Shown here piece after piece: positions 2,759 to 58,160 of a DNA stretch of 64,000 nucleotides; the first letter of the stretch is position 1, and every line of letters begins with the position of its first letter. The stretch lies in NCBI GenBank assembly GCA_002368195.1, contig AP018178.1, positions 5,273,286-5,337,285 on the forward strand, read 5' to 3'. Origin of the DNA: Calothrix sp. NIES-2100 (GTDB lineage Bacteria > Cyanobacteriota > Cyanobacteriia > Cyanobacteriales > Nostocaceae). The notes under the pieces were generated by a model that saw only the letters and a program-made list of their open reading frames with translations, had not been told where the DNA came from and ran no database searches. The position numbers and the translations under genes were made by a program.

Positions 2759-2774
2759 AACTGATTTACCCATA

Positions 2775-25863: not shown

Positions 25864-25891
25864 CAATTGACAAATATAAAAGGATTTAAAA

Positions 25892-40051: not shown

Positions 40052-41383
40052 TTAGTTACATAGCTCATGACGAATTACAAATTCTGTCATGAGTTTTAAC
40101 AAATCATGTGCTAATAATCTATCAGCAGCATTTTTAATCACATCAAATGTAATACCTGACTTTTGGGCAATATCCAACAAAGTATGTTGACCATCGGAGA
40201 AATTCAAAACCCACAACATTGCCATTTCATGTAATCTTTTATCTTTGACTTCGTTATTGCCTTCATAAAGACCTCTTTTTCCCAACTGTGGCTCACATTT
40301 GGGATTTTGATTTAAGAAAACTTGATTATTATCAAGGATATGCAATATGGAAAGACATTGAGCAAATGATTCTGCTAGATATTGGGGGTGAATAAAATTT
40401 AAATCATCTGCTGATGTGTGATATTCGGGAAAACTACCATGAGGCGATCGCATTAAGCAACCTACAGCTAAATTAAATCCAGGTGAGCAATACTGGCGTT
40501 CATCATAGCCATAGGGAAAGAAATCGATAATTTCATATTCCTGAGGAGAATTTTTCAAAACATAAGCCGCAACTCGATCAATTTCCGTATTACCTCTACG
40601 GCTTTTTTTATAGGTAAATTTTCCCCCATCTCCTAAACAGGTGAGGACTAGCCCATGCTTAATATTGCTCACTTGAGCTTCATTTACAGCCAACCATGTA
40701 ATTGAGCCGATAGTTCCCGGAATCCAGATAAATCGATAGGAGTATCTTGGGTTACTTTGACTTAAGTATTTAGCTATAAAAGTAGCGATCGCAATTCCCG
40801 AAAGATTATCATTGCACAGTGAAGGATGACAAGCATGGCAAGAAATTAAGACTTCATCTGTGCTTTCTCCAGGGATAAAATATTCACCATAGGTCAGATG
40901 ACCCGGTTCTAATGAAGAATTAATATATACTTCATATTCTTCATCTTTTAGTTGTAAATACTGGTTATGGCTGAGGCAAAAGCCCCAAGCTTCTTTATAA
41001 TATGAAGTGCGATAGGGAATCCAATCAGGATAATCTGGAAGCGTAAACAGATGTGATTTTAATTCTGCAAGAGACAGCTTTTGATGTACAGGTATACTGT
41101 AGTTCAGAACGTGCAGATTTGAATTAGCAAAATCTACAATTTTTTCACCTTGGGAGTTTTTAATATAAGCATCTTTAATATTCCATTCATTAGGAACTGT
41201 CCAATCAAAGACTTCAGTTCCCGTGGGTACTTCATGAATTGATAAAGGAATATATTGCTGAATAATTTTCAGGGTTTCTCGAAAGCCATTACCAGTAATA
41301 CTACGACAGATCGGATATAGCTCAGCGATTAGCTGATAAATTTCCTGAGCAATGTCAGATGATGCGATATTATCAAGGATCAT
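40052..41383 (-). CDS. DUF4910/aminopeptidase-like domain protein (last gene of sugar operon)
   Basis: 443 aa; resemblance to DUF4910 proteins found in polysaccharide/glycan clusters; assignment from memory of family. Confidence 0.5.
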   Translation of the reverse strand: MILDNIASSDIAQEIYQLIAELYPICRSITGNGFRETLKIIQQYIPLSIHEVPTGTEVFDWTVPNEWNIKDAYIKNSQGEKIVDFANSNLHVLNYSIPVHQKLSLAELKSHLFTLPDYPDWIPYRTSYYKEAWGFCLSHNQYLQLKDEEYEVYINSSLEPGHLTYGEYFIPGESTDEVLISCHACHPSLCNDNLSGIAIATFIAKYLSQSNPRYSYRFIWIPGTIGSITWLAVNEAQVSNIKHGLVLTCLGDGGKFTYKKSRRGNTEIDRVAAYVLKNSPQEYEIIDFFPYGYDERQYCSPGFNLAVGCLMRSPHGSFPEYHTSADDLNFIHPQYLAESFAQCLSILHILDNNQVFLNQNPKCEPQLGKRGLYEGNNEVKDKRLHEMAMLWVLNFSDGQHTLLDIAQKSGITFDVIKNAADRLLAHDLLKLMTEFVIRHELCN

Positions 41384-41407
41384 ATCTTTGTTGCCAGATC
41401 AATGGAA

Positions 41408-42154
41408 TTATAAGGGTTTTGCGAACGGTCTAATGTTAATATCAGTCACTTCAGCAGTACGAGGTAAGCTAAGAGCGTTAATCACTACATCAGCCACATC
41501 ATCTGGTTGCATGAGACGTTCTGGGTGATAAGGTTTACCCTCTATTTCGTGAATTCTGGCTTGTAGAGGAGTAGCAGTCCGGCCAGGAAACACGTTAATA
41601 ACCCGTATTTGCTCAACATTCACTTCTTCGCGGAGACTATCAGCGATCGCCTTGAGGGCGTGTTGGGTAGCAGCATATTGTCCCAAATTCGCCCTAGGAC
41701 TGTTAATTACACTGGAGTTGATAAACAAAATTTGTCCGCTACTAGATAAAAGCATCGGGAGTAAAGTTTGTGTCAACAGATAAGGTGCACGAACATTAAC
41801 CCGATAAAGCAAGTCTAACTCTTGAACAGAACTCGTTTGCAATGTCCCCATTGAGAACATACCTGCACTTTGGATAAGCAAGTCAATCTGCTCAAAATCT
41901 CGCTCCAGATTTGTTTTTAGTTTGCGGATATCTTCATCGATCGTCAAGTCGATTGCATAGCAAACAACTTTAGGGGAAGTTTCAAGAGCGATCGCGGCTA
42001 CTGTTTGCAGGGTTTCCAAGTTGCGTCCTAGCAAACAAAGTTTTACACCTTGCGCAGCCAAACCTAAAGCGATCGCTCTCCCGATTCCACTACTAGCCCC
42101 TGTGAGAACTGCAACCTGACCGATTAAAGTTTCCATTTTGAGAGTACTATTCAA
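41408..42154 (-). CDS. short-chain dehydrogenase/reductase (candidate sugar ketoreductase)
   Basis: TGASSGIGRA Rossmann motif; SDR catalytic region with YAATQHALK-type YxxxK; 248 aa. Confidence 0.8.
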   Translation of the reverse strand: MNSTLKMETLIGQVAVLTGASSGIGRAIALGLAAQGVKLCLLGRNLETLQTVAAIALETSPKVVCYAIDLTIDEDIRKLKTNLERDFEQIDLLIQSAGMFSMGTLQTSSVQELDLLYRVNVRAPYLLTQTLLPMLLSSSGQILFINSSVINSPRANLGQYAATQHALKAIADSLREEVNVEQIRVINVFPGRTATPLQARIHEIEGKPYHPERLMQPDDVADVVINALSLPRTAEVTDINIRPFAKPL

Positions 42155-42229
42155 TTCAGTATTGAAGTTGTATTGCTAATGAAATCCTTTGACACTAACC
42201 CATCAAGCTATGCTGTGCTTTTCCCAGCT

Positions 42230-42787
42230 TTACGTTACCCTAGGTGTGACAATTTTTGTCCGCTCAAATAAACTCCAAGTTTTATCTTTTTCCGATATTT
42301 CACTCACTCTTAGAGGCCATTCAATATCAAAAGCTGGGTCATCATAACGATATCCATCGGCATATTCTGGAGCATAGAAATCACCCATTTGATACATCAC
42401 CTCTGTGTCATCGCTAAGAGTTTGAAAACCATGAGCAAATCTATCCGGGATATAAAGCGCCCGCCGATTGTCAGCAGTTAACTCTACACCAATGTGAGAT
42501 AAATAAGTCGGAGATTCTGGGCGTAAATCAATAATCACATCATAAATTGCACCCTGGATGCAACGCACTAACTTTGTTTCCTGGGAAGGAGGCTTTTGAT
42601 AATGCATCCCCCGCAATGTTCCTTTTTTATTATTAAAAGATAAATTGCATTGAGCGATTGTAGATTTTAATCCATAAGCTGCAAATTCATTGATGCAAAA
42701 AGTCCGAGCGAAAAAACCCCGTTCATCCTGGCGCAACTCTAAATCAATAATAAATGCCCCTTTTAGCTTAGTTTCAGTGAATAACAT
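42230..42787 (-). CDS. NDP-4-keto-6-deoxyhexose 3,5-epimerase (RmlC-like cupin)
   Basis: 185 aa; conserved GxLRGMHYQ region (KGTLRGMHYQ) and overall RmlC pattern. Confidence 0.8.
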   Translation of the reverse strand: MLFTETKLKGAFIIDLELRQDERGFFARTFCINEFAAYGLKSTIAQCNLSFNNKKGTLRGMHYQKPPSQETKLVRCIQGAIYDVIIDLRPESPTYLSHIGVELTADNRRALYIPDRFAHGFQTLSDDTEVMYQMGDFYAPEYADGYRYDDPAFDIEWPLRVSEISEKDKTWSLFERTKIVTPRVT

Positions 42788-42803
42788 AAATTTCTAAATT
42801 CGA

Positions 42804-43457
42804 TTAAAAAAACATTTTTCGGCAGTAAAAGGCTTCAGCGTAATTATTAGGTGAATTAGATTCTATTCCCCGAATTCTCAGGATTGAACGAAAAGTATCT
42901 TCTGTAAACCATTGCTTATGATTCTGGGTGAGAAATGAATCTAGAATATAGTTGATTTTTTGCCGACAAATTGTGTCATCTAAATGCACAAAGAAATTAG
43001 GAATCCCCAAGTCACCATCGTACTTGGGGATTTCATATTCCAGAATTAAATGATTTCTAAATGTGTTCCAAGTCAAATTGGAAATTAAACGATGATCTTG
43101 ATGGCGATCGTCTCGGTGATGAGTCAAAATAATATCTGGGTCAAATTCCTGCTTCAACTCCTCAAAGCATTCTTTTACCTCTATTCCGTGGAAAGGTAAA
43201 AAGCCATCTCGAAAATTTTTAATGATGACTTTCTTTGTGTTTACCTCTTTTAAAAAAAGATTGGCGCTTGCAATTGCTTCCTGCTTTCTCTCCTCGTTGG
43301 AACTAAATACTACCCAATATACAATGACATTTTTGTAATTTTCAATCAGTTTTAAGACTGTCCCTCCACAGCCGATTTCAATATCATCGCAATGAGCGCC
43401 TAGACAGAGAATCTTATATTGCGATTCATCTGTCTTATTCAAGCTAAGCTTGATCAT
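42804..43457 (-). CDS. PIG-L/LmbE family deacetylase
   Basis: N-terminal AHCDDIEIGCGG metal-binding motif; 217 aa; 4-nt overlap with upstream gene. Confidence 0.75.
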   Translation of the reverse strand: MIKLSLNKTDESQYKILCLGAHCDDIEIGCGGTVLKLIENYKNVIVYWVVFSSNEERKQEAIASANLFLKEVNTKKVIIKNFRDGFLPFHGIEVKECFEELKQEFDPDIILTHHRDDRHQDHRLISNLTWNTFRNHLILEYEIPKYDGDLGIPNFFVHLDDTICRQKINYILDSFLTQNHKQWFTEDTFRSILRIRGIESNSPNNYAEAFYCRKMFF

Positions 43458-44251
43458 ACATGAGATGCCTCTAGATTTTTATCTCTCCATACTTCCCAAG
43501 GTCTTACACCCTGAGCATACATATCATCCAACTGTTGCTTTTCTTTAAAGGTATCCATAACCCCAAAAAAGCCAGTATATTTATAAGCAATCAGTTCCTG
43601 TTGATTAATCAGTCTTTGAAAAGGTTCTAGAACAAGTTCTTCCCCATAATTAATATACTTGAAAATATCTTTTTTGAAGATAAAATATCCCCCATTAATC
43701 CAGATATCACGCTGCTTCACATCCTGGAGGTCTTGCACCAAACCATTATCATCTATATCTACTAAATGAAAACTTTGGCTTGGTCTCACACACAGAAAAC
43801 TACCTATTTTATCACGCCGATAAAAATTATCAATGTATGTAGGTAAATGCAAATTTGTCAAGCCGTCACTGTAATTAGCGAGAAATACTTCTTCGCCATC
43901 AAGATATTCTTCAATTGCCTTAAACCTTTGTCCAATATTAGCAGTTAAACCAGTATCCACAAAAGTGATATTCCAATCTTGGATATCATGGTTAAACAGT
44001 TGAATTTTGCTGCCACTAGAAAGAGTAAAGTTATTAGAAAGCCATTCATTATAATTTAAGAAATAGCTTTTTATTAGATCAGCTTTATAACCCAAACACA
44101 AGATAAAATCCTTATGTCCATAATGGGCATAGTATTTCATCACATGCCATAAAATCGGTCTATATCCGATATTAACCATCGGCTTAGGAATGGATTCGGA
44201 ATAATCTCTCATCCGCGTACCTAAACCACCACAAAATAGTACTACTTTCAT
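43454..44251 (-). CDS. rfbF: glucose-1-phosphate cytidylyltransferase
   Basis: MKVVLFCGGLGTRMRDYSESIPKPMVNIGYRPILWHVMKYYAHYGHKDFILCLGYK matches the RfbF N-terminus closely. Confidence 0.85.
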   Translation of the reverse strand: MKVVLFCGGLGTRMRDYSESIPKPMVNIGYRPILWHVMKYYAHYGHKDFILCLGYKADLIKSYFLNYNEWLSNNFTLSSGSKIQLFNHDIQDWNITFVDTGLTANIGQRFKAIEEYLDGEEVFLANYSDGLTNLHLPTYIDNFYRRDKIGSFLCVRPSQSFHLVDIDDNGLVQDLQDVKQRDIWINGGYFIFKKDIFKYINYGEELVLEPFQRLINQQELIAYKYTGFFGVMDTFKEKQQLDDMYAQGVRPWEVWRDKNLEASHV

Positions 44252-44261
44252 TTTGCACCTC

Positions 44262-44346
44262 AGTTAATAGTCAATAGTCAATAGTCATTTGTTATTATCT
44301 CCCTCATCTCCCTTATCCCCCACATCCCTAGCCCCTATCCCCTATC
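44262..44346. repeat. STRR heptamer arrays inside sugar operon intergenic gap
   Basis: tcaatagtcaatagtcaatagtca...ccctcatctccc...cctagcccctatcccctatcccc. Confidence 0.8.
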
Positions 44347-44348
44347 CC

Positions 44349-45593
44349 CTAGTAAACATTAACTTCCGGAATAGGGACAACAAACTTACCGCCCCAATCG
44401 CGAATGTAAGAAATTTGTGTCATAATTTCATCCTTAAGATTCCAGGGTAAAATCAGCACATAATCAGGTTTAGTTTCTTGAATTTTGTCAGGATGAAAAA
44501 TGGGAATGTGAGTCCCTGGTAAAAATTGACATTGTTTGTAGGGACTACGATCTACTGTATAGTCAATAAAATCTGTACGAATACCGCAGTAGTTTAACAA
44601 AGTATTTCCCTTACCAGGAGCGCCATAACCAACAATTGTTTTACCTTCACGCTTAACTTTGATCAAAAAATCTAATAACTTGCGTTTGGTTTCTTTAACT
44701 TTCTCACCAAAATCAAAATAATATTCTAATTTCGTAAAACCAGCGGCTTCTTCTCTAGCTTTCAGTTCTAAAACCTGCTGACTAATAGGTTTAGAATCGT
44801 CTTCTGTGTGACGGGCATAAATTCTTAAAGAACCGCCATGAGTAGATAATTCTTCGACATCAAATATAGTCAAACCGTGAGCAGCAAAAATTTTCTCTAC
44901 CGTAGTGAAGGAAAAATAAGAGAAATGCTCGTGGTAAATAGTATCAAATTGATTTTCTTCTATTAACCTCATGAGATGAGGGAATTCCATCGTAATCACA
45001 CCGTGCTGTTTCAGGATAATTTTCATCCCTTTAACGAAATCATTGAGGTACGGTGTATGAGCAAGGACATTATTTCCCAGTAATAAATCCGCCTGTTTTC
45101 CCTTAGCAACTTGTTCTTGGGCTGTCTCCTGTCCAAAAAATTTGACAACGGTGGGAATCCCTTTTTTAATCGCTACTTCAGCAACATTTGCAGCTGGTTC
45201 GATTCCCAAAGCCGGAATATCTTTGGCAACAAAGTATTGCAGTAAGTAACCATCATTACTCGCAATTTCTATGACTTGGCTTTCCTGATTTAGTTGGAAA
45301 CGCTCAACTGCCATATCAACATATTTTTTGGCGTGTTGCAACCAGCTATCGGAGTAGGAAGAAAAATAAGCGTAGTCGCTAAAGATATTTTCCGGACTTA
45401 TGTATTCTTGGAGTTGAACTAAAAAACAATTGTCGCAAACATAAACATGCAATGGATAAAAAGGCTCCATTTCATTTAGCTGTTTAATGTTGCGATAGCT
45501 TTCGCAAGGAGGAGACATACCTAAATCTACGAAGGTATGCTGTAATCCGTTCCCACAAAATAGACAATTACCAGTTGTGTGTTGAATATTCAT
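44349..45593 (-). CDS. NDP-hexose C-methyltransferase (TylC3/EryBIII-like)
   Basis: N-terminal Cys4 zinc ribbon (CLFCGNG...CESY...CDNCFLVQ), class I SAM MTase core, C-methyltransferase C-terminal domain; 414 aa. Confidence 0.75.
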   Translation of the reverse strand: MNIQHTTGNCLFCGNGLQHTFVDLGMSPPCESYRNIKQLNEMEPFYPLHVYVCDNCFLVQLQEYISPENIFSDYAYFSSYSDSWLQHAKKYVDMAVERFQLNQESQVIEIASNDGYLLQYFVAKDIPALGIEPAANVAEVAIKKGIPTVVKFFGQETAQEQVAKGKQADLLLGNNVLAHTPYLNDFVKGMKIILKQHGVITMEFPHLMRLIEENQFDTIYHEHFSYFSFTTVEKIFAAHGLTIFDVEELSTHGGSLRIYARHTEDDSKPISQQVLELKAREEAAGFTKLEYYFDFGEKVKETKRKLLDFLIKVKREGKTIVGYGAPGKGNTLLNYCGIRTDFIDYTVDRSPYKQCQFLPGTHIPIFHPDKIQETKPDYVLILPWNLKDEIMTQISYIRDWGGKFVVPIPEVNVY

Positions 45594-45629
45594 GATTTAA
45601 ATTTATTTTTTAAATACCGAATTTTAAAC

Positions 45630-46658
45630 TTAAAGAGTACGCCAGAAGAAGCTTTGATCAATTTGCTGAGTGCGAATGAGATACTCAAGTTGTTTCAAGC
45701 GAGTAAAGGCTCTAAACTCAAATGTTTCTTTACTCATATCAATTTGCTTAAAGACATTATAAAGTTGTTGCGCACCCCGTTGAGCATTCCATTCACATTT
45801 GAATCCTGGCAAAGTTTGGTTAATTTTATCGAAAGAAACCCGATAGCTACGGTTATCAGGATCATGTTTGCCAAAGCTTAATTGACAACCTGTAAAAACA
45901 TCTGCAACTATTTGGGCAATTTCTTTAACTTGATAGTTGCTATTTGTATCACCGACATTAAAAATTTGGTTGTGAATTACATCACGCGGAGCTTCTAAGG
46001 TACAGATAATTGCTTTACAAATATCCAGCAGATGTACTAAAGGCCGCCAAGGTGTACCATCACTGTTCATCTTAATTTCTTTAATTGTCCATGCCCAACC
46101 TGCGAGATTGTTTAAGACAATATCAAAGCGCATCCTGGGGGAGGCTCCATAAGCTGTCGCATTGCGCAAAAAGGTAGGAGAAAAGCTATCATCAGCTAAG
46201 AGTTTTACATCCTGTTCTACCAATGCTTTGCATTTAGCATAAGCTGTTTGGGGATTGATGTTAGACTCTTCGTTGACATAATCTTCAGTAGCAAAGCCAT
46301 AAACACTGCATGAGGATGTGTAGACAAAGCGTCGTACTCCTGCTTCCTTAGCCAGTTTTGCTAAATGTACTGAGCCTTTATGATTAATATCGTAGGTAAT
46401 ATTGGGCGCTAATTGTCCTAGTGGATCGTTGGAGAGTTCTGCCATGTGAACTACTGCTTCTATTCCTTCGAGATCAGCAGCTTGTAGATTGCGAATGTCT
46501 TTGTTTAAAGTTTTGGCAGTTAGCTCTGTGCCGTTGTACAACCAGCCTACTTTATAAAAGCCCGTATCCACAGCAAGAACTTCATAACCTTGTTGCAGTA
46601 ACAGGGGGGCTAATAATGAGCCGATATAACCTTCAGTTCCAGTGACAAGTACTTTCAT
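45630..46658 (-). CDS. NAD-dependent sugar epimerase/dehydratase (candidate CDP-hexose 4,6-dehydratase)
   Basis: VLVTGTEGYIGSLL Rossmann motif, catalytic YAKCK; 342 aa. Confidence 0.8.
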   Translation of the reverse strand: MKVLVTGTEGYIGSLLAPLLLQQGYEVLAVDTGFYKVGWLYNGTELTAKTLNKDIRNLQAADLEGIEAVVHMAELSNDPLGQLAPNITYDINHKGSVHLAKLAKEAGVRRFVYTSSCSVYGFATEDYVNEESNINPQTAYAKCKALVEQDVKLLADDSFSPTFLRNATAYGASPRMRFDIVLNNLAGWAWTIKEIKMNSDGTPWRPLVHLLDICKAIICTLEAPRDVIHNQIFNVGDTNSNYQVKEIAQIVADVFTGCQLSFGKHDPDNRSYRVSFDKINQTLPGFKCEWNAQRGAQQLYNVFKQIDMSKETFEFRAFTRLKQLEYLIRTQQIDQSFFWRTL

Positions 46659-46669
46659 ATACGCAAATC

Positions 46670-48541
46670 CTAGGCTGTAATTGCAGGTTGTAGATGCTTT
46701 GGTTCAGTAGCAATAGTTAATGGCTGAATTTCTTGATGATTTACCAGCAATACTTTGGAGACAATTTCATCTCGCAAAGGGGCTGCTTCGTCTTGGGTTA
46801 ACCAAAAGAAGAGCTTTGCTAATGATTGTGGAGAACGATCAATTTTGAGGATTTCTTGGAGCATCAGCAAAGCTCCAGCTAAATTACCCGCCTTGAGAGG
46901 AATTGCTGCATTTGCCAGACAATAATTAAAGTTATAGCTACGAGCTTGACGTGTAATCTCTGAACACAGGTCAGTAGGAAGATAACTCTCAGTAATTTCT
47001 ATATTTTGGCGAATGTAAGCGGCAAGTTTCCCAGATACTAATTGACCATCTGTCATGTTGTTAGTATGCAAGCGGTAACATGCCAAACTTCCTGGCTCGT
47101 ACAACCAATCATAAACAACAGCAATGCGCTTGTATAGTTCCCATTCAGGGGCGCAAACTAATTCAGGATGATAACCTCCTCTGTGTTCATAAGTTACCCG
47201 ACGAATTACAACCGCAGGTACCTGCAACGGAAGTGTGATACCAATTATTTGCAGAAAATTCTGAAGTATGCCTTTGTGTTCTCCAAACAAGGAAACTGGT
47301 TCTCCTGGGTTAACTACTGTTCCTGTCTCATTGATGTATTCAAAACCTGTGAAAGCTGCTCCCACAGAATCTGGACAATCTTCGAGACTATGCTGGAGAC
47401 GGGCGTAAAAATTTGGAAAAACACAATCGTCATCATGTAAAATATGAATCCATTCACCCCGACTAACGCTAACACCCACATTATGATTTGGTAGTGCGCC
47501 AACATTTTGCTGATTGCGGTAGTAGCGAATTACTCCTCCCCCCAAACTATTCACTAGATCAAATAAAGGTTTGGTACTGGCATTGTCCATCACCAGTATT
47601 TCCATTTGCTCTGCCCCAGGCCATTGCACCAGAACGCTAGCTAGACATTCGAGTAGATAATCAGTACGGTTATATACCGGAATCACGACAGACCAAAACG
47701 GTCGAGGTTGCTCAGGGTTGGTGACAGGTGGTATCCCTGGAAACTGATAAGCGCCTACAGTAACTTCGCAGTGGGGTATGGGTGGAGTAACAAGGATATC
47801 CTGAGGGCTGCCAGCTTCTTGATAAGCGGCTACTGCTTGGGCATAGTGAGGATTGAGTAACTTTAATCCTTGGCGATAAGCCGCGATCGCACCCGGAAAA
47901 TCCTTCTGTTGTTGATAAACCCTGCCTAATTTGAGGTACAGTTCGCCATTATCAGGATTGAGTTCCACAGCTTTTTGATAATAAGCGGCAGCAATTTGCC
48001 AATCTCCGGCTGTTTCCCGTTCCATTGCCAATTGCTGATTCAATTGCTCGTAGTAGCTTTTTTGTTCTGCTAAAAGCTTCCCTTGGCTATGCAGTATGTT
48101 GCCTAAATTTACCTCGGCTTCTGTACAGTTAGGCTGAATTTCTAAGGCTTTTTGGTAGCAGCTAACTGCCTCATCTAGCTGCCCTTGTTGTTGGAAGGTG
48201 TAACCCAGGTTGTTGTAAATTGGAGCAGCATCTGGCTTGAGGGCGATCGCTTGTTGGTAAGCTACCACTGCTGCTGCTAATTTACCTTGAGCTTGCTGCA
48301 AATTCCCTAAACTAAACCAGGCGGGAAATAATTGCGGTTGCGCCGCCAATGCTGCATTGAGTAACTCCTCTGCTTGGAGTAGATTACCACGCTGTTGTGC
48401 TATTGTACCTAATCTATATAATGCCTCTGGATGATCGGGCTGTGTTTCCAAAACCTGATGGTATATCATCTCAGCCTGCTCTAAACGATTAGCTCGATGA
48501 TTTTCAATAGCAAGTTGAAGGAGTTCAGAAGCGTTTACCAT
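46670..48541 (-). CDS. TPR-repeat protein fused to family-2 glycosyltransferase domain
   Basis: N-terminal ~250 aa TPR repeats; C-terminal GT-A domain (FWSVVIPVYNRTDYLLECLASVLVQ...VMDNAS...HDDD). Confidence 0.8.
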   Translation of the reverse strand: MVNASELLQLAIENHRANRLEQAEMIYHQVLETQPDHPEALYRLGTIAQQRGNLLQAEELLNAALAAQPQLFPAWFSLGNLQQAQGKLAAAVVAYQQAIALKPDAAPIYNNLGYTFQQQGQLDEAVSCYQKALEIQPNCTEAEVNLGNILHSQGKLLAEQKSYYEQLNQQLAMERETAGDWQIAAAYYQKAVELNPDNGELYLKLGRVYQQQKDFPGAIAAYRQGLKLLNPHYAQAVAAYQEAGSPQDILVTPPIPHCEVTVGAYQFPGIPPVTNPEQPRPFWSVVIPVYNRTDYLLECLASVLVQWPGAEQMEILVMDNASTKPLFDLVNSLGGGVIRYYRNQQNVGALPNHNVGVSVSRGEWIHILHDDDCVFPNFYARLQHSLEDCPDSVGAAFTGFEYINETGTVVNPGEPVSLFGEHKGILQNFLQIIGITLPLQVPAVVIRRVTYEHRGGYHPELVCAPEWELYKRIAVVYDWLYEPGSLACYRLHTNNMTDGQLVSGKLAAYIRQNIEITESYLPTDLCSEITRQARSYNFNYCLANAAIPLKAGNLAGALLMLQEILKIDRSPQSLAKLFFWLTQDEAAPLRDEIVSKVLLVNHQEIQPLTIATEPKHLQPAITA

Positions 48542-48582
48542 ATTTAATTATCTGATTAATTAAGCAATTTTTTAACTAACTT

Positions 48583-50502
48583 TCAGTTGTTATCAAAATC
48601 AATTGGCAGTGAGATTAATTTATGAGCGATCGCATCCCTGAGGGGAGCCGCTTCATCACAGGTTAACCAAATAAATGACTGTGCCACTGCTTCAGGCGAG
48701 GAATCTACAATCAAGGCTTCTTGGAGTTTTACAGCAGCAGCATTAACATTGCCAATTTTTAGTAAATGTGTGGCTTGTGCTAGGAAATTTTGCCAGTAAA
48801 AACTTCGTGATTTAGCAGTAATATTTGCAGCATCTTCTACAGGCAGATAGCTTTCGGAGATTTCAATTGCCCGACTGATATCTTTTCCTTGATTTCCTGC
48901 TAATGAAAGTTCGGTAGTGGCATTTTGAGAATGCTCGCGGTAGCGTGCTAAAACTTCCGGCTCACACCACCAATCATCAGTAGCCGCAATGCGTTTGTAG
49001 AGTTCCCAGTCAGGAGTATATTTCAACTCAGGATGATAAACACCAAGCCTTTCATGGGTGGCGCGCCGAATAACCACCGCAGGCATATTTAATGGGTTAC
49101 CTATCCCAATCCCCTCTATCCAATTTGGCGCTATGCCTCTATACTCTCCATATAGTTTTTGAGTGAAAATTACTTGACCGCGATCGTTAATATTTTCGTA
49201 ACCTGTAAAAGCTGCACCCACCGAGTCTGGACAATTTTCTAAACTCTGCTGTAATCGTTCATAAAATCCAGGCAGAATCAAATCATCATCGTGAAGCAAG
49301 TGAATCCACTGTCCCCGACTCAAAGCAACTCCAGCATTCCAATTACCTGGTAAGCCAAGATTTTGCTGGTTGTGGTAGTAGCGTACTATTCCACCCCCAA
49401 TTGAATTGACTAACTCAGCCAGAGATGAGGAACTAGAATCATCCATGACGATGATTTCCATGTTCTCTGCCCCCTGCCATTGTCGCAGTACACTGGCAAG
49501 ACATTCAAGCAGATAGCTTTTACGGTTATATACAGTAACTACAACAGTCCAAAACGGTCGATTTTCTGCACTGGCTAACACTGGTGAAATTGCGGGAAAT
49601 CGATTTTTGCCAACAATCACTTCTTCAAAGGTAATCGGCGGGGTAGCTTGTTCTAACTGGGTGTAAGTACTATCATCAACCGCCACTGCTTTTGCATAGT
49701 GGGGATTAACTAAGCTTAACCCTTGCCGATATGCACCCACCGCCTTTGGGAATTGGTTTTGCTTTTGATAAATGCTACCTAGGTTAAAGTAAACTTCTCC
49801 ATAGTTGGGGTTGATTTGTTGGACTCTTTCGTAACAAGCGATCGCCTCTTCTAATGTCCCTTGTTCTTGCAGCACTACTCCCAAGTTATAATGAGCTTCT
49901 AGTAAATCGGGTTGTAGTGCGATCGCTTGTCTGTAGTAGGTAACAGCATTCTGCAAATCTCCGGCTTTTTTATGAGCAACACCCAACTTGTTATTTAATT
50001 TTGCATAGTGAAGTTTTTGCTCGCTAGAAAGCTTACCTTGGGCGTGCAGTGTATTCCCCAAATTCGCTTCGGCTTCGCTAAAATCTGGTTTTAATTCGAG
50101 AGCTTTTTGATAGTAGTTAATTGCTTCGTCAAATAGTCCTTGTTGTTGCAGCGCATAGCCCAAGTTGTTGCAAATTGGTATTGAATCCCGTCGGAGAGCT
50201 AAAGCTTGATGGTATGCTGTTACTGCTTGTGAAAACTGCTGTTGAGCTAAACGCAAATTACCTAAACTGAACCAAGCCTTAACAAAGTCAGGCTGCACCT
50301 GCACAACAGTATTCCAGAACTTTTCTGCCGACTCTAACTCACCTTTTTGCTGTGCTAGTACACCTAATCTGTATAATGCTTCTGGATGGTTTGGTTCTTC
50401 TACTAACACCTGATGGTAACTTTGTTCAGCTTCGATTAATTGATTAGCTTGATGATACTTAATAGCAACTTGAAGAGTTGAGGAAGAAGAAATCGTCACC
50501 AT
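48583..50502 (-). CDS. TPR-repeat protein fused to family-2 glycosyltransferase domain (paralogue, first gene of operon)
   Basis: collinear with 46670..48541 (FWTVVVTVYNRKSYLLECLASVLRQ...VMDDSS...HDDD). Confidence 0.8.
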   Translation of the reverse strand: MVTISSSSTLQVAIKYHQANQLIEAEQSYHQVLVEEPNHPEALYRLGVLAQQKGELESAEKFWNTVVQVQPDFVKAWFSLGNLRLAQQQFSQAVTAYHQALALRRDSIPICNNLGYALQQQGLFDEAINYYQKALELKPDFSEAEANLGNTLHAQGKLSSEQKLHYAKLNNKLGVAHKKAGDLQNAVTYYRQAIALQPDLLEAHYNLGVVLQEQGTLEEAIACYERVQQINPNYGEVYFNLGSIYQKQNQFPKAVGAYRQGLSLVNPHYAKAVAVDDSTYTQLEQATPPITFEEVIVGKNRFPAISPVLASAENRPFWTVVVTVYNRKSYLLECLASVLRQWQGAENMEIIVMDDSSSSSLAELVNSIGGGIVRYYHNQQNLGLPGNWNAGVALSRGQWIHLLHDDDLILPGFYERLQQSLENCPDSVGAAFTGYENINDRGQVIFTQKLYGEYRGIAPNWIEGIGIGNPLNMPAVVIRRATHERLGVYHPELKYTPDWELYKRIAATDDWWCEPEVLARYREHSQNATTELSLAGNQGKDISRAIEISESYLPVEDAANITAKSRSFYWQNFLAQATHLLKIGNVNAAAVKLQEALIVDSSPEAVAQSFIWLTCDEAAPLRDAIAHKLISLPIDFDNN

Positions 50503-50700
50503 ATAAATTTCTCTAATAATTTGTAATAGCTAAACCCATAAAAAGCCAGGGCTGTCTTCAAATCAGCTGCTTATTTTGGAGTCACACCCAACTTTTTATT
50601 TATTGATGCATAACTAATATAGTTACTTTGTAAATTTTTTTACCTTCGGTTTTTTATAAATATCTACTACTACTATTAGCTAAATAAATTCCATTTGTAT

Positions 50701-50743
50701 AGTCAAATTGGCTAGAAATCAAAATTTTCTAGCCAATTTGGCT
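50701..50743. promoter_or_regulatory. paired AG(T/C)CAAATTGGCT palindromic motifs, 30-nt centre-to-centre, ~200 nt upstream of sugar/GT operon
   Basis: agtcaaattggctagaaatcaaaattttctagccaatttggct; also forms a 15-nt-arm inverted repeat. Confidence 0.45.
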
Positions 50744-50879
50744 GAGATTTTAATTGCTGCACTCAGTCTGAATTATAAATTATAAAATCTTAGTAAATCT
50801 TAAAAATTGCCGCCAAGTCGATGTAGAGTATGAGAATTACCTGATGTGGACAGAGTGGTATCCAAATTTACTTGATATT

Positions 50880-51160: not shown

Positions 51161-52177
51161 TACTCTTCAACTAGCCCATTCACCGATCAACAGTAGCTGT
51201 TGATATCGATGGAGCGGTGTTTTTTCGTCGTCTAAATCAGCATTTAGGGCGATCGCTTCGCTGCGATCGGCAACAAAAGTCTGTCAATCACCTATTGCCA
51301 ACAAAACAGTGATGATTGCCTGTCGCTCAAATTTCTTCTATTGAAATCGAACTAAAACCGGATTGTGAACAACTACTAGAAGTAGAGCTTGAGTAACTAA
51401 TCGAACTTGAATTTACGTAAATACTTGCATTTCCCTCAGAGGAAATACTGACAGAAATGCTCTGACTGACCTCACTTTGATCGTCGCCAGATGCCTTGAC
51501 AAAACTTTTAACCTCGGCTATAGTCTTTCCATCAGGTGAGACTATCCGTTTATTTACAACTCGATAGCGATTCACGATCGTCCTACCTACTTGTTGTTTA
51601 TTTGGATAAGATAAGCAAATCAGAGGAAGGATAAGTCAGGGGATAATGCGCGTTACAATTATCACCTGAATTGATCTGGCTCTGATGGCTCGCAACAACA
51701 AAATAAAAGTTTTTTCTGAGATTTGTTAACTTTGGGCAATTAATTTTTTAATTGCCCATGTTCATTATATAGCATAATTGGTGATTAACGATCATATTTT
51801 TGACTGTGTAATTCATAAAAATATCTCATCTATTGATAGATAGTAATTTGATTTTTTATGGTTTTAAATAGATAAATGCCAAAGTTATGGCTAATAACTA
51901 GCAAATTTTCTTGTCCAGATTTAAGCGATGGTTTTTTAGTTTTTGAAGCGATACAAAATCTGTCTTTGCCTTGGAAACTTTCCCATTAGTAAAGTAACCT
52001 GAATTCAAAGATTTATGTATTAACCTGACCCCCAATCCCCAGTATTAAAAATTCTTCCGGATCTTCCCCTCAACCCCGCCACTGCAAATGAGGGGTAGTG
52101 AAAATCGTAATTTTTCTGATTCTTCCCTCTCCTTGTAGGAGAGGGGGATTAGGTGGGTGAGGTTTTTGTAATACAAG

Positions 52178-54652
52178 TTAAAGTATTGCGCCTGCTTTTG
52201 TTTCCTCTAACTTCTGCTGACTTTCATCAATATCTTCTAAAATCCTGTGAACTTCCCTATGGTTGGGATTCAGTTCTAGCGCTTGTTGAAAATAAACTTT
52301 GGCAGTTTGTAAATCACCTGCCTTTTTTCGACTAAGACCTAATTTATAATTTAATTCTGCATAATGAGCTTGTTGGTCTTGTGAGAGTTTACCTTGGGTA
52401 TAAAGCGCATTACCTAAATTTACATCCGCTTCAACGCAGTTGGGCTGTATTTGTAAAGCTTTTTCATAGCAATTTATCGCTTCTTCCCATTTGCCTTGTT
52501 GTTGCAAAGCATAACCCAGGTTGTTGTAAATTGAAACCGCATCTGGTCGCAGAGCAATGGCTTTTCTGTAAGCGTGTTCAGCTTTTGGTAACTGTCCCTG
52601 TAGTTGACACAGATTTCCTAAAGTAAACCAAATTTTGACAGAATCAGGTTGAACTTGTGAAGCTGTACTGAGGAATTTCTCAGCTGCTTGCAATTCTCCC
52701 CTTTGCTGTGCAATTACACCTAGACCATATAAAGCATCAGGATGGTCTGGCTGGATTGACAAAACCTGACGGTAAGCTTGTTCGGCTGGTTCTAAGTGAT
52801 TTTCTCGATGTTCTTGGATTGCTAGTCGCAGGGTTTCCGCAACGCTATTTATAGCAGATATCCTGGGTTTGCCGACAGCATTCAGCAAAAATTCCTCTAA
52901 GGCTCGAATTGGCTCCAAGTCGCCATATAATTTATGCTTGTTCTGGGAAATTAACTCGGATATGTAGTGACGATATTCAGAATCTCTCCCTAGACGGATG
53001 GCAAATTGTACATATTCCTCCTTGCTAGAAGCAATTGTTTCCTCGATACCCATCATCTTCAAGATTGCCAGAGTATGTCGTCCCCTCATCAATTCCCCTG
53101 GTAGAGTGATAACGGGAACGTTATAGGCAATACATTCCAAGGTAGAATTACATCCAGACCAACCGATGCTATCCAGAAAGACATCTGCTATGGCAGCTGT
53201 GCCAGCAAACCTTCTGCTACTCATGCCCGGTAAAAATATACAGTAGTCTTGATAATTCAGCCCAAATTCCTGAAAAATTTGCTGTAAACGCTGACGAAAT
53301 ACTTCAGTAATATATTCACTCTCATCATGTTGGATAAATACAAACTTACAATTGCTTAACTCTTTAGCAATTTTGGGAAAAACGTCATCATGTTGAGGTA
53401 AATATTTAAATAAGGATTGGCAACACCATAACATAATTTCATTATCGGCAATGCCAATATCTTTTTTGCTCACAGCCTCATATTCAGTTGCTAGAGGCGT
53501 GTAATGAATAGATAGATTTGGTAATCTGACTAATTTTTCTGTATAGTGTTCTTGAGCATTTTCTGGTTCCATTAATTCACTGCTCAAGTAATAATCAATG
53601 GTTGGTAAACCACTGGTTTGAGGATGTCCCCAAGAAGTGATTTGAATAGGAGCTAGCTTTAAACAACCTAGTCTTACTGTCATATGATCCATCCCAAATT
53701 CCGGGAAAATCAGGATGTGTAAATTGTCTTTGTAAATTAGCTCAGCCCATTCTTCAAATGACAGTGACCCTTGAGTAAATTTGTCAAATTCTTTTGCGGC
53801 TCTTGTAGTGTTATGATCTCGCTTGGAGTTAGTGTGATATGCAAATAATTCAAATTCACTCCTATCCAAGTTTTCGATCCAACCCTTGATGGGAATTTTC
53901 CAATTAGAATGACTGTAAAAAAATTTGGAAACTAAACCAATACGAACTTTTTGATTTGGCTTTAAATCTGGCAGAGGAATAGCTTGACTCCATTGGGGAT
54001 AACAATTCGACGTAATATGAACAAGCATTTCCCCATAAGTTTTCTGCAAAGTCCGGTCATTTAAGCATTGATAAGCCAGATAAAAAGGCTGTAGTGAACC
54101 TACTGTATCTACAGATTTTTCTAACTCTTGTTTGTCAGCTATTTGATAATTTTGAGCTAATTCTTCTAGGTAATTTTGATAGTTATTTCGCTGAGTATTT
54201 ATTTCTGTATAACTGGAGTAAATAATTGGCAATTGAGCAATGAGAAGTCCAAATTTTGCTCTAGATAAATCAGGTTGAAACTTTAAGGCTTGCTGATATG
54301 CTTCTATAGCAGCCTCTAGGTCACCTAAGTCATAATATGTATTTCCTAAGTTCCAATAAGCATATACAAAATCAGGCATAATTTTTAATGCCTGTTGGAA
54401 GCATTTTTTAGCTGACTCTAAGTCGCGTTGACCCGTCAATGCACAGCCCAAGTTATGATGAGCCTCAGCATAGTCAGGTCTGATTTTTAATGACTGTTGG
54501 AAAGATGCTGCTGCTGCTTCTAGCTTACCTTCTTTTAGAAATATATTCCCTAAATTGAAATGTTCTTCAGCATTCAAATTGGTGTCTGTTACAGGAGAAT
54601 TCGATTGCAAAGATAGAGCCTCTGATGACATAACAACCTCATAAATCTGCAC
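52178..54652 (-). CDS. TPR-repeat protein with central O-GlcNAc-transferase-like (GT41/SPY-like) glycosyltransferase domain
   Basis: N- and C-terminal TPR blocks; central region (RIGLVSKFFYSHSNWKIP...APIQITSWGHPQTSGLPTIDYYLSS...) resembles GT41; C-terminal TPR block near-identical to N-termini of the two TPR-GT2 proteins. Confidence 0.8.
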   Translation of the reverse strand: MQIYEVVMSSEALSLQSNSPVTDTNLNAEEHFNLGNIFLKEGKLEAAAASFQQSLKIRPDYAEAHHNLGCALTGQRDLESAKKCFQQALKIMPDFVYAYWNLGNTYYDLGDLEAAIEAYQQALKFQPDLSRAKFGLLIAQLPIIYSSYTEINTQRNNYQNYLEELAQNYQIADKQELEKSVDTVGSLQPFYLAYQCLNDRTLQKTYGEMLVHITSNCYPQWSQAIPLPDLKPNQKVRIGLVSKFFYSHSNWKIPIKGWIENLDRSEFELFAYHTNSKRDHNTTRAAKEFDKFTQGSLSFEEWAELIYKDNLHILIFPEFGMDHMTVRLGCLKLAPIQITSWGHPQTSGLPTIDYYLSSELMEPENAQEHYTEKLVRLPNLSIHYTPLATEYEAVSKKDIGIADNEIMLWCCQSLFKYLPQHDDVFPKIAKELSNCKFVFIQHDESEYITEVFRQRLQQIFQEFGLNYQDYCIFLPGMSSRRFAGTAAIADVFLDSIGWSGCNSTLECIAYNVPVITLPGELMRGRHTLAILKMMGIEETIASSKEEYVQFAIRLGRDSEYRHYISELISQNKHKLYGDLEPIRALEEFLLNAVGKPRISAINSVAETLRLAIQEHRENHLEPAEQAYRQVLSIQPDHPDALYGLGVIAQQRGELQAAEKFLSTASQVQPDSVKIWFTLGNLCQLQGQLPKAEHAYRKAIALRPDAVSIYNNLGYALQQQGKWEEAINCYEKALQIQPNCVEADVNLGNALYTQGKLSQDQQAHYAELNYKLGLSRKKAGDLQTAKVYFQQALELNPNHREVHRILEDIDESQQKLEETKAGAIL

Positions 54653-54928: not shown

Positions 54929-55747
54929 TTAAGTGATGATTTGTATCGAGAGTTGATTAGGAGCGACTCCCTGCACAAACCCAATTAAGTCTAAACCACC
55001 AGCCGCAGTAGGCGATGCAGCAGAAATAAACGTATCAGCACCATTATAACCAAATGAATACGTCGCCGCGCCACTTAACTGGATAATATCCTTACCAACC
55101 TCGTAGTCAAAAATAAACGCATAGTCTGCGTCCTCCCCACCTAGATAAAACGTCCCACCAGCATTACCCAGAACGAATGTATCGGCAGCGTTATCGGGGG
55201 ACAAGCCTACTATATTACCATCGTTGAGAACACCACTACCAACCAAGATATCAAACCCACCCGTCGGAGCAGCAGCGGAAGCTCCCACTATGGTGTCACT
55301 CCCCGCTCCTCCAAATAACTGGTCATCACCATCACCGCCAGTAAGGCTGTCATTGCCGCTATCCCCATAGAGGACGTCATTACCTACAGTGGCATCGAGT
55401 AGATCATTGCCTGCACCCCCATCCAAGTAATCATCGCCTAGACCGCCAAAAAGTTTGTCATCGCCGTTATCCCCAAAGAGTCTATCATCCCCAAAACCCC
55501 CTACCATGAAGTCATTACCATCGCCCCCACGGAGGGTATCATTACCGAAATCTCCGGTGAGGTTGTCATTGCCTTTACCCCCAGAGATGCTGTCATTGCC
55601 GTCACCCCCTAAAATGTTATCATTACCACCTCCACCTATGATGGTGTCATTTCCACTAAGACCTAAGATACTATAGTTAACAGTAATACTGTCTCCCCCT
55701 GGTACAGTGATTTTATCGTTGCCATTGGTTCCTAATTTAGAAGGCAT
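54929..55747 (-). CDS. hemolysin-type calcium-binding (RTX) repeat protein
   Basis: tandem GGxGNDxLxG nonapeptides ([42 protein letters not shown]...). Confidence 0.85.
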
Positions 55748-56085: not shown

Positions 56086-56385
56086 TTACTTTCCGCTGTA
56101 AGCAGTAGAGTTAACTAAAGCGTTAGCAGCACCAGCTGTGGTTTGAGTAACAAATACGATTTGAGCAATGTTCTTTTGTCCACCAGAAGCATCAGCAGAA
56201 CCAGATACTTCAGCCAAGTTACCAGCTAAACCACCGGTGTTCACAGCAAAGCTCTTGTAGGTGGTTTCGACAATGGTTTGCTTAACGTTTTTGTTGAGGT
56301 TAAAGGCTACGTTGGTAGCGAATCCGTCGCCACCAATTACTTCTTCAGATGCATCTTCAAAGTAGTTTAGGTCGTTGATAATCAT
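56086..56385 (-). CDS. small secreted peptide precursor with double-glycine-type leader (bacteriocin-like), copy A
   Basis: start set at MIINDLNYFEDASEEVIGG (strong AGGAGA RBS 9 nt upstream; ORF track begins further upstream); 99 aa; Gly/Ala/Thr/Asn-rich core. Confidence 0.6.
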   Translation of the reverse strand: MIINDLNYFEDASEEVIGGDGFATNVAFNLNKNVKQTIVETTYKSFAVNTGGLAGNLAEVSGSADASGGQKNIAQIVFVTQTTAGAANALVNSTAYSGK

Positions 56386-56983: not shown

Positions 56984-57283
56984 TTACTTTCCGCTGTAAG
57001 AAGTAGAGTTAACTAAAGCGTTAGCTGAATTGGCTGTGGTTTGAGTAACAAATACGATTTGAGCGATGTTCTTTTGTCCGCCAGAAGCATCAGCAGAACC
57101 AGATACTTCAGCCAAGTTACCAGCTAAACCGCCTGTGTTCACAGCAAAGCTCTTGTAGGTGGTTTCGACAATGGTTTGCTTAACGTTTTTGTTGAGGTTA
57201 AAGGCTACGTTGGTAGCGAATCCGTCGCCACCAATTACTTCTTCAGATGCATCTTCAAAGTAGTTTAGGTCGTTAATAATCAT
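56984..57283 (-). CDS. small secreted peptide precursor with double-glycine-type leader, copy B
   Basis: 99 aa; differs from copy A at a few core positions (TTANSANALVNSTSYSGK versus TTAGAANALVNSTAYSGK). Confidence 0.6.
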   Translation of the reverse strand: MIINDLNYFEDASEEVIGGDGFATNVAFNLNKNVKQTIVETTYKSFAVNTGGLAGNLAEVSGSADASGGQKNIAQIVFVTQTTANSANALVNSTSYSGK

Positions 57284-57893: not shown

Positions 57894-58160
57894 TTATTTA
57901 GATGCATAAGCAAGCGCTTGCGAAGAAGCAACAGCTATATAAGGAACTTTTTTTAAAGGTGATGTTATCACTTGCGATCCAGCTCGTGCATAAGTGGTTT
58001 TACCTTCGGCTGAGGCAAAACCACTACCATTTGAAAAGGCACTGAATCGCGATGCTTCACTTAAACTCGAAGATGATGAGACTGCTGAAACACCACCGCT
58101 TAAGATGATGCTGTTTTCCGCAGTTATAGAGGCTAAATATTCTAAATCAGCAATTTTCAT
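57894..58160 (-). CDS. small secreted peptide precursor with GG-type leader (divergent, Ser/Ala-rich core)
   Basis: start set at MKIADLEYLASITAENSIILSGG (ttggagaatttaaaagcATG RBS); 88 aa. Confidence 0.5.
   Translation of the reverse strand: MKIADLEYLASITAENSIILSGGVSAVSSSSSLSEASRFSAFSNGSGFASAEGKTTYARAGSQVITSPLKKVPYIAVASSQALAYASK

Follow-up and report, generated by a model that had tools for sequence, protein, structure and literature searches.

A candidate dehydration-free route to a C-methyl hexose and two TPR-guided glycosyltransferases encoded in one operon of Calothrix sp. NIES-2100

The subject of this analysis is a 64,000-nucleotide stretch of the genome of the cyanobacterium Calothrix sp. 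NIES-2100 (contig AP018178.1, positions 5,273,286 to 5,337,285; hereafter the window), in which nine minus-strand genes at positions 40052-50502 form an operon; these limits, first given in an earlier note made from the DNA letters, match the open reading frame (ORF) list exactly. The gene content, motifs, synteny and a shared cis-element are observed; the individual reactions, the nucleotide used and the acceptor are inferred from them. In the reading that we tentatively favor, the operon encodes enzymes that make a methyl-branched hexose nucleotide in the cytoplasm, together with two soluble family 2 glycosyltransferases (GT2), guided by tetratricopeptide repeats (TPR), that would modify secreted proteins. 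All nine domain calls of the earlier note were confirmed by Pfam and NCBIfam, and its description of an operon for nucleotide-sugar modification, in which two TPR-GT2 genes precede those for a C-methyltransferase of the TylC3/TcaB9 type, an RmlC-type epimerase, a PIG-L deacetylase and a DUF4910 protein, holds as well; the operon type and enzyme families stand, whereas its 6-deoxyhexose product, its "SDR reductase" and its view that such sugars are "not of cyanobacterial envelopes" do not. Operons of this kind are widespread and have been noticed before, and are in this sense ordinary; the dehydration-free route, the modular grammar of the loci and the evidence on the acceptor are what make this one interesting.

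A predicted C4-dehydrogenase in place of a dehydratase

The extended short-chain dehydrogenase/reductase (SDR) of 342 amino acids is predicted to be a C4-dehydrogenase that acts on an NDP-hexose and provides the 4-keto substrate, because it lacks the motif and the hidden Markov model (HMM) match of a dehydratase, resembles Cj1427 of Campylobacter jejuni, has orthologs in synteny with RfbF and L-2-hydroxyglutarate oxidase, and is coupled to the C-methyltransferase. Dehydratases such as RmlB, Eod and Gmd carry TDE, SDK or TSE as their acid/base motif. At this position the window protein has SSCSVYG, which together with YAxxK is invariant in 52 orthologs; the alignment shows that the Ser-Tyr-Lys triad is kept, and that none of the 52 orthologs has an Asp-Glu (or Asp-Lys) acid/base pair. 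Scores against dehydratase models were far below their cut-offs: 25.7 bits for the CDP-glucose 4,6-dehydratase model TIGR02622 (cut-off 278), 40.6 bits for the dTDP-glucose dehydratase model TIGR01181 (cut-off 365), and 18.9 bits for the GDP-mannose dehydratase model TIGR01472 (cut-off 415). A function as CDP-glucose 4,6-dehydratase was rejected on this motif and HMM evidence, and the designation "epimerase/dehydratase" in the earlier note fails in its second half.

The closest solved relative of the extended SDR is 6VO6 (102 bits; every other structure reached at most 65 bits), which we identified as C. jejuni Cj1427 from the published primer Cj1427cF918, whose reverse complement encodes RAFKMMKV, residues 299-306 of 6VO6. 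Cj1427 is described as a ping-pong C4-dehydrogenase in which alpha-ketoglutarate re-oxidizes the tightly bound NADH and becomes L-2-hydroxyglutarate; the resulting NAD+ form oxidizes C4 of a GDP-heptose without dehydration, and an RmlC-fold epimerase and a C4-reductase follow in the pathway (PMC10680097). In five other cyanobacterial genera (Chroococcus, Dolichospermum, Coleofasciculus, Aliterella, and Chroococcidiopsis), the gene order of what we term RfbF-type, or type II, loci is true rfbF, L-2-hydroxyglutarate oxidase, extended-SDR ortholog, C-methyltransferase and RmlC. Here RfbF scores 473 bits on TIGR02623, the oxidase 628 bits on NF008726 (cut-off 299), and the extended-SDR orthologs are 74-82% identical to the window protein; in loci L038, L039, L040, L042, and L052, the oxidase gene is located ca. 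1.2 kb upstream of the extended-SDR ortholog. The oxidase may be a dedicated recycling enzyme for the by-product of the dehydrogenase, a role for which we know of no previous description. A DAO-type FAD oxidase adjoins a more distant extended-SDR homolog in a metagenome-assembled genome (MAG) of the Thermodesulfovibrionales (L056). No locus with the extended SDR was without the C-methyltransferase (46/46).

If the extended SDR is a C4-dehydrogenase and not a dehydratase, it follows that the sugar keeps its 6-hydroxyl group; the product is probably a C-methyl hexose of this kind. The 6-deoxyhexose of the earlier note is difficult to reconcile with a sole extended SDR that has no Asp-Glu pair and is closest to a C4-dehydrogenase. 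A classical CDP-glucose 4,6-dehydratase route to a CDP-3-C-methyl-6-deoxyhexose, like that of macrolide sugars or of the Kuenenia rfbF-rfbG cluster, in which the dehydratase would be either the 342-residue SDR or an enzyme encoded elsewhere, appears distinctly unlikely: the RfbF-like enzyme, the C-methyltransferase and RmlC that it needs are all there, and rfbG occurs within the cassettes of Kuenenia, Chamaesiphon and JSC-12, but the motif and model results above speak against it, the window has no other dehydratase, and the L-2-hydroxyglutarate oxidase linkage indicates oxidation of the Cj1427 type. To our knowledge, all biochemically studied members of this methyltransferase family use 4-keto-6-deoxy substrates, which favors the 6-deoxy route.

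Several observations weigh against C4 oxidation by the extended SDR. No L-2-hydroxyglutarate oxidase gene was found in the operon or elsewhere in the 64-kb window; the identity between the extended SDR and Cj1427 is only ca. 30%; and the C-methyltransferase occurs without the extended SDR in 17 loci. The extended SDR is possibly an epimerase or a 4-ketoreductase, and the 9.9-Mb genome could hold a 4,6-dehydratase gene outside the window. A literature search found no report of branched-chain or C-methyl sugars in cyanobacteria, and gave nothing relevant on vinelose. The AlphaFold model of the extended SDR, built from 23 sequences that are all at least 78% identical, had a mean predicted local distance difference test score of 54 and was too poor for a fold search.

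Activation, methylation and later steps

The nucleotidyltransferase, termed NTP', has the full-length fold of glucose-1-phosphate cytidylyltransferase (residues 2-255 align with residues 4-258 of 1TZF at 182 bits) and conserves the GGLGTR motif; the EKP sugar/phosphate motif is changed to DVK. On TIGR02623, it reaches 214.1 bits, under the equivalog cut-off of 300.25, and it shares no more than 33-35% identity with the true RfbF of type II loci, suggesting that its sugar specificity has probably changed relative to RfbF. The RfbF-like enzyme making a CDP-hexose, as originally proposed, is in part supported; the RfbF-like fold is evident and CDP is plausible, but the equivalog threshold is not reached. 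CDP is the likely nucleotide handle because orthologs of the extended SDR (ca. 80% identical) stand downstream of true RfbF. The PIG-L protein has the metal motifs AHCDD and HQDH, and scores 50.5 bits on the BshB1 equivalog model (cut-off 182.5). NTP' and PIG-L occur together in 55/55 loci, mostly with overlapping stop and start codons, and PIG-L is found in 0/7 RfbF-type loci; the simplest reading of this coupling is that NTP' activates an N-acetylhexosamine, which PIG-L would then deacetylate.

The C-methyltransferase, identical (100%) to a protein of Calothrix sp. NIES-2100, combines an N-terminal PF08421 domain (83 bits) with a C-terminal PF08484 domain (232 bits); its structural matches are MtmC (4RV9, 272 bits) and TcaB9/KijD1 (ca. 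220 bits). It has a Cys4 zinc site (CxxC...CxxC), its segment DTIYHEHFSY aligns with DTIYHEHLSY of MtmC, including the catalytic YHEH, and it is predicted to act on an NDP-4-keto sugar. The RmlC-type epimerase scores 173.6 bits on TIGR01221, above the cut-off of 155.75, and 145 bits with RmlC structures in the PDB; the catalytic His, Lys, Tyr and Asp residues were found in the segments GMHYQ, ETKLVR, VMYQ and SEKD.

The classical SDR has the cofactor motif TGASSGIG, followed by LLGRN, an NADP-type pattern. In its active site (YAATQ), Gln replaces the catalytic Lys of YxxxK, and the label "SDR reductase" could not be upheld; its orthologs, sampled in L030, L036-L038, L064, and L065, carry YAATK, YAATQ, or FAATQ, the last with the Tyr lost as well. 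The protein may be a pseudo-enzyme or a partner of the adjacent DUF4910 protein, which is ca. 60% identical to CA_C2195 of Clostridium acetobutylicum (PDB 3K9T, 556 bits).

In the proposed pathway, NTP' would activate a hexose-1-phosphate, probably with CTP and possibly in the form of an N-acetylhexosamine that the coupled PIG-L enzyme de-N-acetylates. The extended SDR would then oxidize C4 without dehydration, in a Cj1427-like ping-pong cycle through tightly bound NAD(H); the TylC3-type enzyme would methylate the 4-keto sugar at C3 (or C5), and RmlC would epimerize it. Re-reduction of the keto group would fall to the non-canonical SDR or to the NADH form of the C4-dehydrogenase, and the DUF4910 protein would perform one further step. 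Pairs of DUF4910 and SDR genes were also found alone, with no sugar genes nearby, which counts against this reading.

The operon could alternatively serve two donor pathways, one for each GT2, with NTP', PIG-L and possibly DUF4910 making an amino sugar, and the extended SDR, methyltransferase and RmlC remodeling another NDP-sugar from general metabolism. The modules do separate in nature: a minimal locus of Scytonema tolypothrichoides (L029) has only NTP', PIG-L and DUF4910, plus three TPR-glycosyltransferases; in another (L035), the set is reduced to the C-methyltransferase, NTP', PIG-L and DUF4910; RfbF occurs without PIG-L in type II loci; and L091 combines RfbF with the extended SDR and the C-methyltransferase but lacks both PIG-L and DUF4910. 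The window also has two paralogous GT2s. Yet the modules are interleaved in gene order (extended SDR, C-methyltransferase, NTP', PIG-L, RmlC), the operon has a single nucleotidyltransferase, and many loci pair the full cassette with one TPR-GT2; on balance, we consider two donor pathways improbable.

Candidate transferases, acceptors and a shared palindrome

No transmembrane helices were predicted in any of the nine operon products. The two TPR-GT2 proteins are paralogs (51% identical); their GT-A domains resemble solved GT2 enzymes weakly, the best matches being enzymes of polysaccharide or lipid-linked-glycan synthesis at no more than 41 bits, and no likeness to SunS appeared among the PDB matches. 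The window also encodes a GT41 protein that aligns with the catalytic regions of the protein glycosyltransferases OGT, SPINDLY and XcOGT. Over 218 residues, its C-terminal TPR module shares 56% identity with the N-terminal TPR of TPR-GT2a, compared to ca. 33% for generic TPR matches. TPR-GT2 homologs are confined to cassettes of the NTP'-PIG-L type (29/55 loci, versus 0/7 RfbF-type loci). In a metagenome scan, TPR-GT2a found one true ortholog (L091); the other 38 matches were limited to the TPR. The TPR-GT2 pair and the OGT-like GT41 protein probably glycosylate secreted proteins before export, and the candidate acceptors would be RTX or RTX-like proteins and small double-glycine-leader proteins, in a same-strand array with an upstream palindrome in common.

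The double-glycine-leader proteins GG1 to GG4 have 88-109 residues, a leader of the form MxIxDLxYLE...GG, and cores rich in Ser, Thr, Ala and Gly; GG1 and GG2 lie within a tandem duplication of ca. 898 bp. Among 129 loci fetched, this family was confined to TPR-GT2 loci; in L021, L022 and L025, its genes immediately precede an RTX gene and TPR-GT2, and the family also occurs in L030. GG1 to GG4 and the protein small82 have no Pfam or NCBIfam match, and no C39-peptidase ABC exporter was found in the window. Such an exporter belongs to glycocin-type peptide glycosylation, in which a SunS-like GT2 acts on a double-glycine-leader peptide encoded nearby; in the window, GG-leader and GT2 genes are co-located and have a palindrome in common. 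Besides RTX272 of the window, RTX genes adjoin TPR-glycosyltransferase genes in Nostoc (L013, L014, L025, L090), Rivularia and Calothrix CCY0018 (L034, L031), L021/L022, Microseira, Scytonema, and Calothrix NIES-2098, the last with three RTX genes. A divergent contig from a metagenome shows the same association, with three RTX ORFs immediately ahead of the genes for TPR-GT2, an RfbF-like enzyme, the extended SDR and the C-methyltransferase.

The 13-bp palindrome AGCCAAWTTGGCT, with at most one mismatch, has nine matches in the window (positions 36590, 50701, 50731, 56466, 56496, 57363, 57393, 58414, and 59778), compared to 0.13 expected, and all nine lie in the 5' regions of the operon, GG1 to GG4, or RLP1. 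A 68-nt element with two such sites is found upstream of TPR-GT2a and of two leader-peptide genes, and in Calothrix NIES-2098 the dual site precedes the cassette by ca. 250 nt (L089, 9727/9757); the copy upstream of TPR-GT2a is a candidate operator or promoter. The match at 36590, with one mismatch, precedes RLP1 by ca. 325 nt. That the operon, the leader-peptide genes and RLP1 have this palindrome in common argues for one regulon.

RLP1 and its paralog RLP2 are RTX-like proteins of ca. 440 residues, rich in Ser, Thr and Ala (ca. 19% Ser+Thr), with degenerate GxGxD repeats. The family comprises at least 142 homologous clusters, all cyanobacterial and without a Pfam domain. As a general, conserved acceptor RLP was rejected, since homologs in Gloeotrichia, Mastigocoleus, Sphaerospermopsis and Dapis have no TPR-glycosyltransferase or cassette nearby, and adjacency of RLP and cassette was limited to the window, L003 and L032; a role as acceptor in this genome survives only because of the palindrome that RLP1 has in common with the operon. 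Secretion is suggested by the setting in Sphaerospermopsis, where genes for a C39-peptidase ABC exporter and an HlyD-like protein adjoin the RLP homolog.

Soluble products, the TPR link to GT41, the RTX and GG-leader neighbors and the palindrome thus strengthen the protein or peptide acceptor that the earlier note had proposed from the two leading TPR-GT2 genes. The full scenario – a dedicated cytoplasmic glycosylation of secreted RTX and GG-leader proteins with a new C-methyl (possibly 2-amino) hexose made via C4 oxidation, all within one AGCCAAWTTGGCT regulon of Calothrix – is possible but doubtful. Points against a protein acceptor in general include the RTX class comparison (10/44 versus 0/13 loci), which is statistically weak, RTX genes being numerous in these genomes; the four other genera in which RLP homologs lack glycosylation neighbors; and the palindrome itself, which could mark a stress or developmental regulon with no enzyme-substrate relation between its members.

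Alternatively, the cassette and the TPR-GT2 enzymes might build an envelope or extracellular polysaccharide (O-antigen, sheath, or slime of the hormogonium type), with the TPR only organizing an assembly complex. We regard this as unlikely, for all that cassettes do feed polysaccharide loci in other phyla, which also bears against protein glycosylation: orthologous cassettes stand in wzx/wzy/wzz or wzm/wzt loci of four phyla, they adjoin GT-C enzymes (GT87, PMT_2) in Coleofasciculus and in the Thermodesulfovibrionales MAG, the weak GT2 structure matches (at most 41 bits) point the same way, and a surface polysaccharide was favored in a previous study of such operons (Das et al., 2014, BMC Bioinformatics 15:75). 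Set against this are the solubility of all nine products, the TPR module shared with a GT41 protein glycosyltransferase, the specific association with RTX and double-glycine-leader genes and the common palindrome; moreover, no initiating phosphoglycosyltransferase, flippase, polymerase, chain-length regulator or ABC exporter was found within ca. 20 kb.

Distribution and modularity of the cassette

A scan of one genome per species found 359 DUF4910 relatives, and the loci of the best 80 are nearly all cyanobacterial; beside DUF4910, the C-methyltransferase is found in 63 and the NTP'-PIG-L pair in 55 of them. C-methyltransferase homologs that are 76-95% identical occur throughout the Nostocales and Oscillatoriales, so the earlier claim of a sugar class foreign to cyanobacterial envelopes does not hold as far as genes are concerned; many filamentous cyanobacteria have the cassette, which is therefore not an antibiotic-style oddity. 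The DUF4910 family and its sugar-gene neighborhood have been described from ten bacterial clades, cyanobacteria included, with nucleotidyltransferase, NDP-sugar epimerase/dehydratase, C-methyltransferase, RmlC, deacetylase, short-chain reductase and glycosyltransferases as neighbors (Das et al., 2014). The supplementary tables of that study place cassettes within wzx/wzy/wzz or wzm/wzt loci, for example in Chroococcidiopsis, Streptomyces ipomoeae, Kuenenia, and Haliscomenobacter. The earlier note had named orthologous clusters in O-antigen loci as evidence that would contradict it; these do exist in other lineages, and the 64-kb window is not such a locus.

The slot beside DUF4910, which we term keto-processing, is occupied by different enzymes: a classical SDR in the window, Microseira and others; a 305-residue extended SDR in Nostoc; and a class III aminotransferase, similar to glutamate-1-semialdehyde aminomutase, in Tolypothrix, Rivularia, Calothrix NIES-2098, and Haliscomenobacter. 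The alternation between SDR and aminotransferase fits the conversion of a keto group into either a hydroxyl group or an amine. Loci of the Scytonema type have no second redox enzyme. Between RmlC and this slot, 26 loci (L005, L001, L040, and 23 more) encode a conserved protein of ca. 300 residues (for example, L005 8036-8944), which is missing from the window operon and has no Pfam or NCBIfam match. DUF4910 and the C-methyltransferase are 70-76% identical to genes of the Thermodesulfovibrionales MAG (L056), suggesting inter-phylum transfer.

Peptide-modification genes were observed near some cassettes. Directly downstream of the cassette in L029 (11668-14089), a multi-core microviridin precursor with the leader motif PFFARYL and four T-x-K-Y-P-S-D cores is accompanied by MvdC/MvdD ATP-grasp ligases, and an MvdD-like gene stands at the end of the Microseira locus (L003); the microviridin genes were rejected as part of the system, as they are absent elsewhere. 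In Nostoc punctiforme NIES-2108 (L090), a Nif11-leader peptide gene and a radical SAM/SPASM maturase (1970-3890) lie just upstream of an RTX gene and two TPR-GT2 genes, and a ShlB/TpsA two-partner secretion pair follows downstream of the cassette.

Operon layout and genomic setting

The coordinates of the operon and the associated features are collected in Table 1. Within the operon, intergenic gaps measure 11-97 nt, the PIG-L and nucleotidyltransferase genes share the only overlap (4 nt), and the ORF list contains no credible gene on the opposite strand. The minus strand holds everything from 40052 to ca. 59412, and the transcription unit probably extends past 40052-50502. The array is not a chance arrangement, since tens of genomes have this set of genes. 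A promoter and terminator scan gave consensus promoter counts in the operon region that did not exceed those of shuffled sequences, and Rfam and tRNA scans of the window found no RNA genes. The sugar cassette (42001-46000) has a G+C content of 36.6-37.0%, compared to 43% for the two TPR-GT2 genes (46001-50000), consistent with separate origins of the two parts. A contig from Logan (L088) shows a second copy of the module elsewhere in the same Calothrix NIES-2100 genome, consisting of the extended SDR (81% identical), C-methyltransferase and nucleotidyltransferase.

Table 1. Features of the operon and its surroundings; coordinates are window positions.
Feature	Position	Strand	Evidence or remark
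RLP1, RTX-like	36898-38259	+	converges on operon
RLP2, paralog of RLP1	38623-40011	+	converges on operon
DUF4910/DUF2172/HTH_47 protein, CA_C2195 family, metallopeptidase-like	40052..41383	-	Pfam, 402.8 bits
Classical SDR, keto-processing slot beside DUF4910	41408..42154	-	Pfam/NCBIfam, motifs
RmlC-type 3,5-epimerase, predicted substrate NDP-4-keto sugar	42230..42787	-	TIGR01221
PIG-L/LmbE-family Zn deacetylase	42804..43457	-	Pfam, 59.6 bits (cut-off 28.2)
NTP', paralog of glucose-1-phosphate cytidylyltransferase RfbF	43454..44251	-	TIGR02623, 1TZF alignment
NDP-hexose C-methyltransferase, TylC3/MtmC/TcaB9 type	44349..45593	-	PF08421 + PF08484
Extended SDR, 342 aa, predicted NDP-hexose C4-dehydrogenase (Cj1427-like)	45630..46658	-	PDB similarity, motifs, synteny
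TPR-GT2b, soluble TPR + GT-A family 2 glycosyltransferase	46670..48541	-	Pfam
TPR-GT2a, TPR + GT2, first operon gene	48583..50502	-	Pfam
68-nt element, two AGCCAAWTTGGCT palindromes 30 nt apart, then TATACA	50677..50744	.	175-242 nt upstream of TPR-GT2a
small82, 82-aa protein, Ser-rich tail	51327..51575	-	homologs in L029, L032
TPR + GT41 (OGT/SPINDLY-like) + C-terminal TPR module	52178..54652	-	Pfam GT41, PDB alignment
RTX272, 272-aa RTX (HemolysinCabind) protein, candidate acceptor	54929..55747	-	Pfam
GG1, double-glycine-leader protein, ~99 aa, MIINDLNYFEDASEEVIGG...	56086..56385	-	dual palindrome 56466/56496
GG2, near-identical tandem duplicate of GG1	56984..57283	-	dual palindrome 57363/57393
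GG3, double-glycine leader, Ser/Ala-rich core	57894..58160	-	palindrome 58414
GG4, double-glycine-leader protein	59056..59385	-	palindrome 59778, 1 mismatch

The N-terminal 62 residues of small82 share 59% identity with an ORF in L029, which there overlaps the stop codon of DUF4910, and 48% with an ORF in L032. The remaining window is occupied by housekeeping genes (rpsB, tsf, recG, the CO2-uptake genes ndhF3/ndhD3/chpY, and topA); no wzx, wzy, wzz, ABC O-antigen exporter or initiating transferase gene was found in the 64 kb, nor any sugar-nucleotide gene outside the operon, dehydratase genes included. The inducible CO2-uptake NDH-1 cluster (20645-27211, plus strand) consists of ndhF3-like, beta-carbonic anhydrase, ndhD3-like and chpY genes, with a CDP-alcohol phosphatidyltransferase gene inserted between ndhD3 and chpY.

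Comparison with known systems and implications

The DUF4910 operons of Das et al. (2014) contain the same family with the same neighbors, and cyanobacteria are on their list; that work was purely contextual, in that no chemistry was assigned, the SDR was called a dehydratase, and polysaccharide export was favored. Unlike those systems, the window combines soluble TPR-GT2 enzymes with RTX and leader-peptide neighbors and has no export or polymerase genes. The GDP-heptose pathway of C. jejuni, with Cj1427, the C3/C5-epimerase Cj1430 and the C4-reductase Cj1428, follows the same logic of oxidation, epimerization and reduction; in contrast, the window pathway would probably use CDP instead of GDP and a hexose instead of a heptose, a C-methyltransferase is inserted, and the catalytic Lys is mutated in its candidate reductase, a classical SDR. 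With the TylC3, MtmC, TcaB9 and KijD1 pathways, the window shares the methyltransferase architecture and motifs and the RmlC-type partner. These actinomycete antibiotic pathways start from dTDP-glucose and proceed through a 4,6-dehydratase to 6-deoxy (often 2,6-dideoxy) sugars on polyketides, whereas the window has no dehydratase, dTDP synthase, polyketide or NRPS (non-ribosomal peptide synthetase) context. All characterized routes to C-methyl branched sugars that we know of start with a 4,6-dehydratase and yield 6-deoxy sugars. C4 oxidation without dehydration would, if true, lead to a new class of these sugars, and extend the Cj1427 mechanism past the heptoses of Campylobacter.

As in the GT41 enzymes OGT and SPINDLY, a TPR is fused to a soluble glycosyltransferase in the window pair, which belongs to GT-A family 2 and not to GT41; a TPR-guided protein glycosyltransferase is also represented by FlmG of Caulobacter. 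Oscillin-type proteins are secreted, Ca2+-binding repeat glycoproteins of filamentous cyanobacteria (PMC12475490, citing Hoiczyk and Baumeister, 1997). The likeness to RTX272 and the RLPs would lie in secretion and Ca2+-binding repeats. We know of no glycosylation genes for oscillin.

Many Nostocales and Oscillatoriales, a large share of these orders and lichen and plant symbionts among them, carry the cassette, and the matching sugar is unreported, which leaves a gap between genes and chemistry; the present analysis offers four enzymes and seven proteins as concrete candidates. If the TPR-GT2 enzymes modify RTX or leader proteins, the missing glycosylation machinery for cyanobacterial surface glycoproteins of the oscillin type would be identified.

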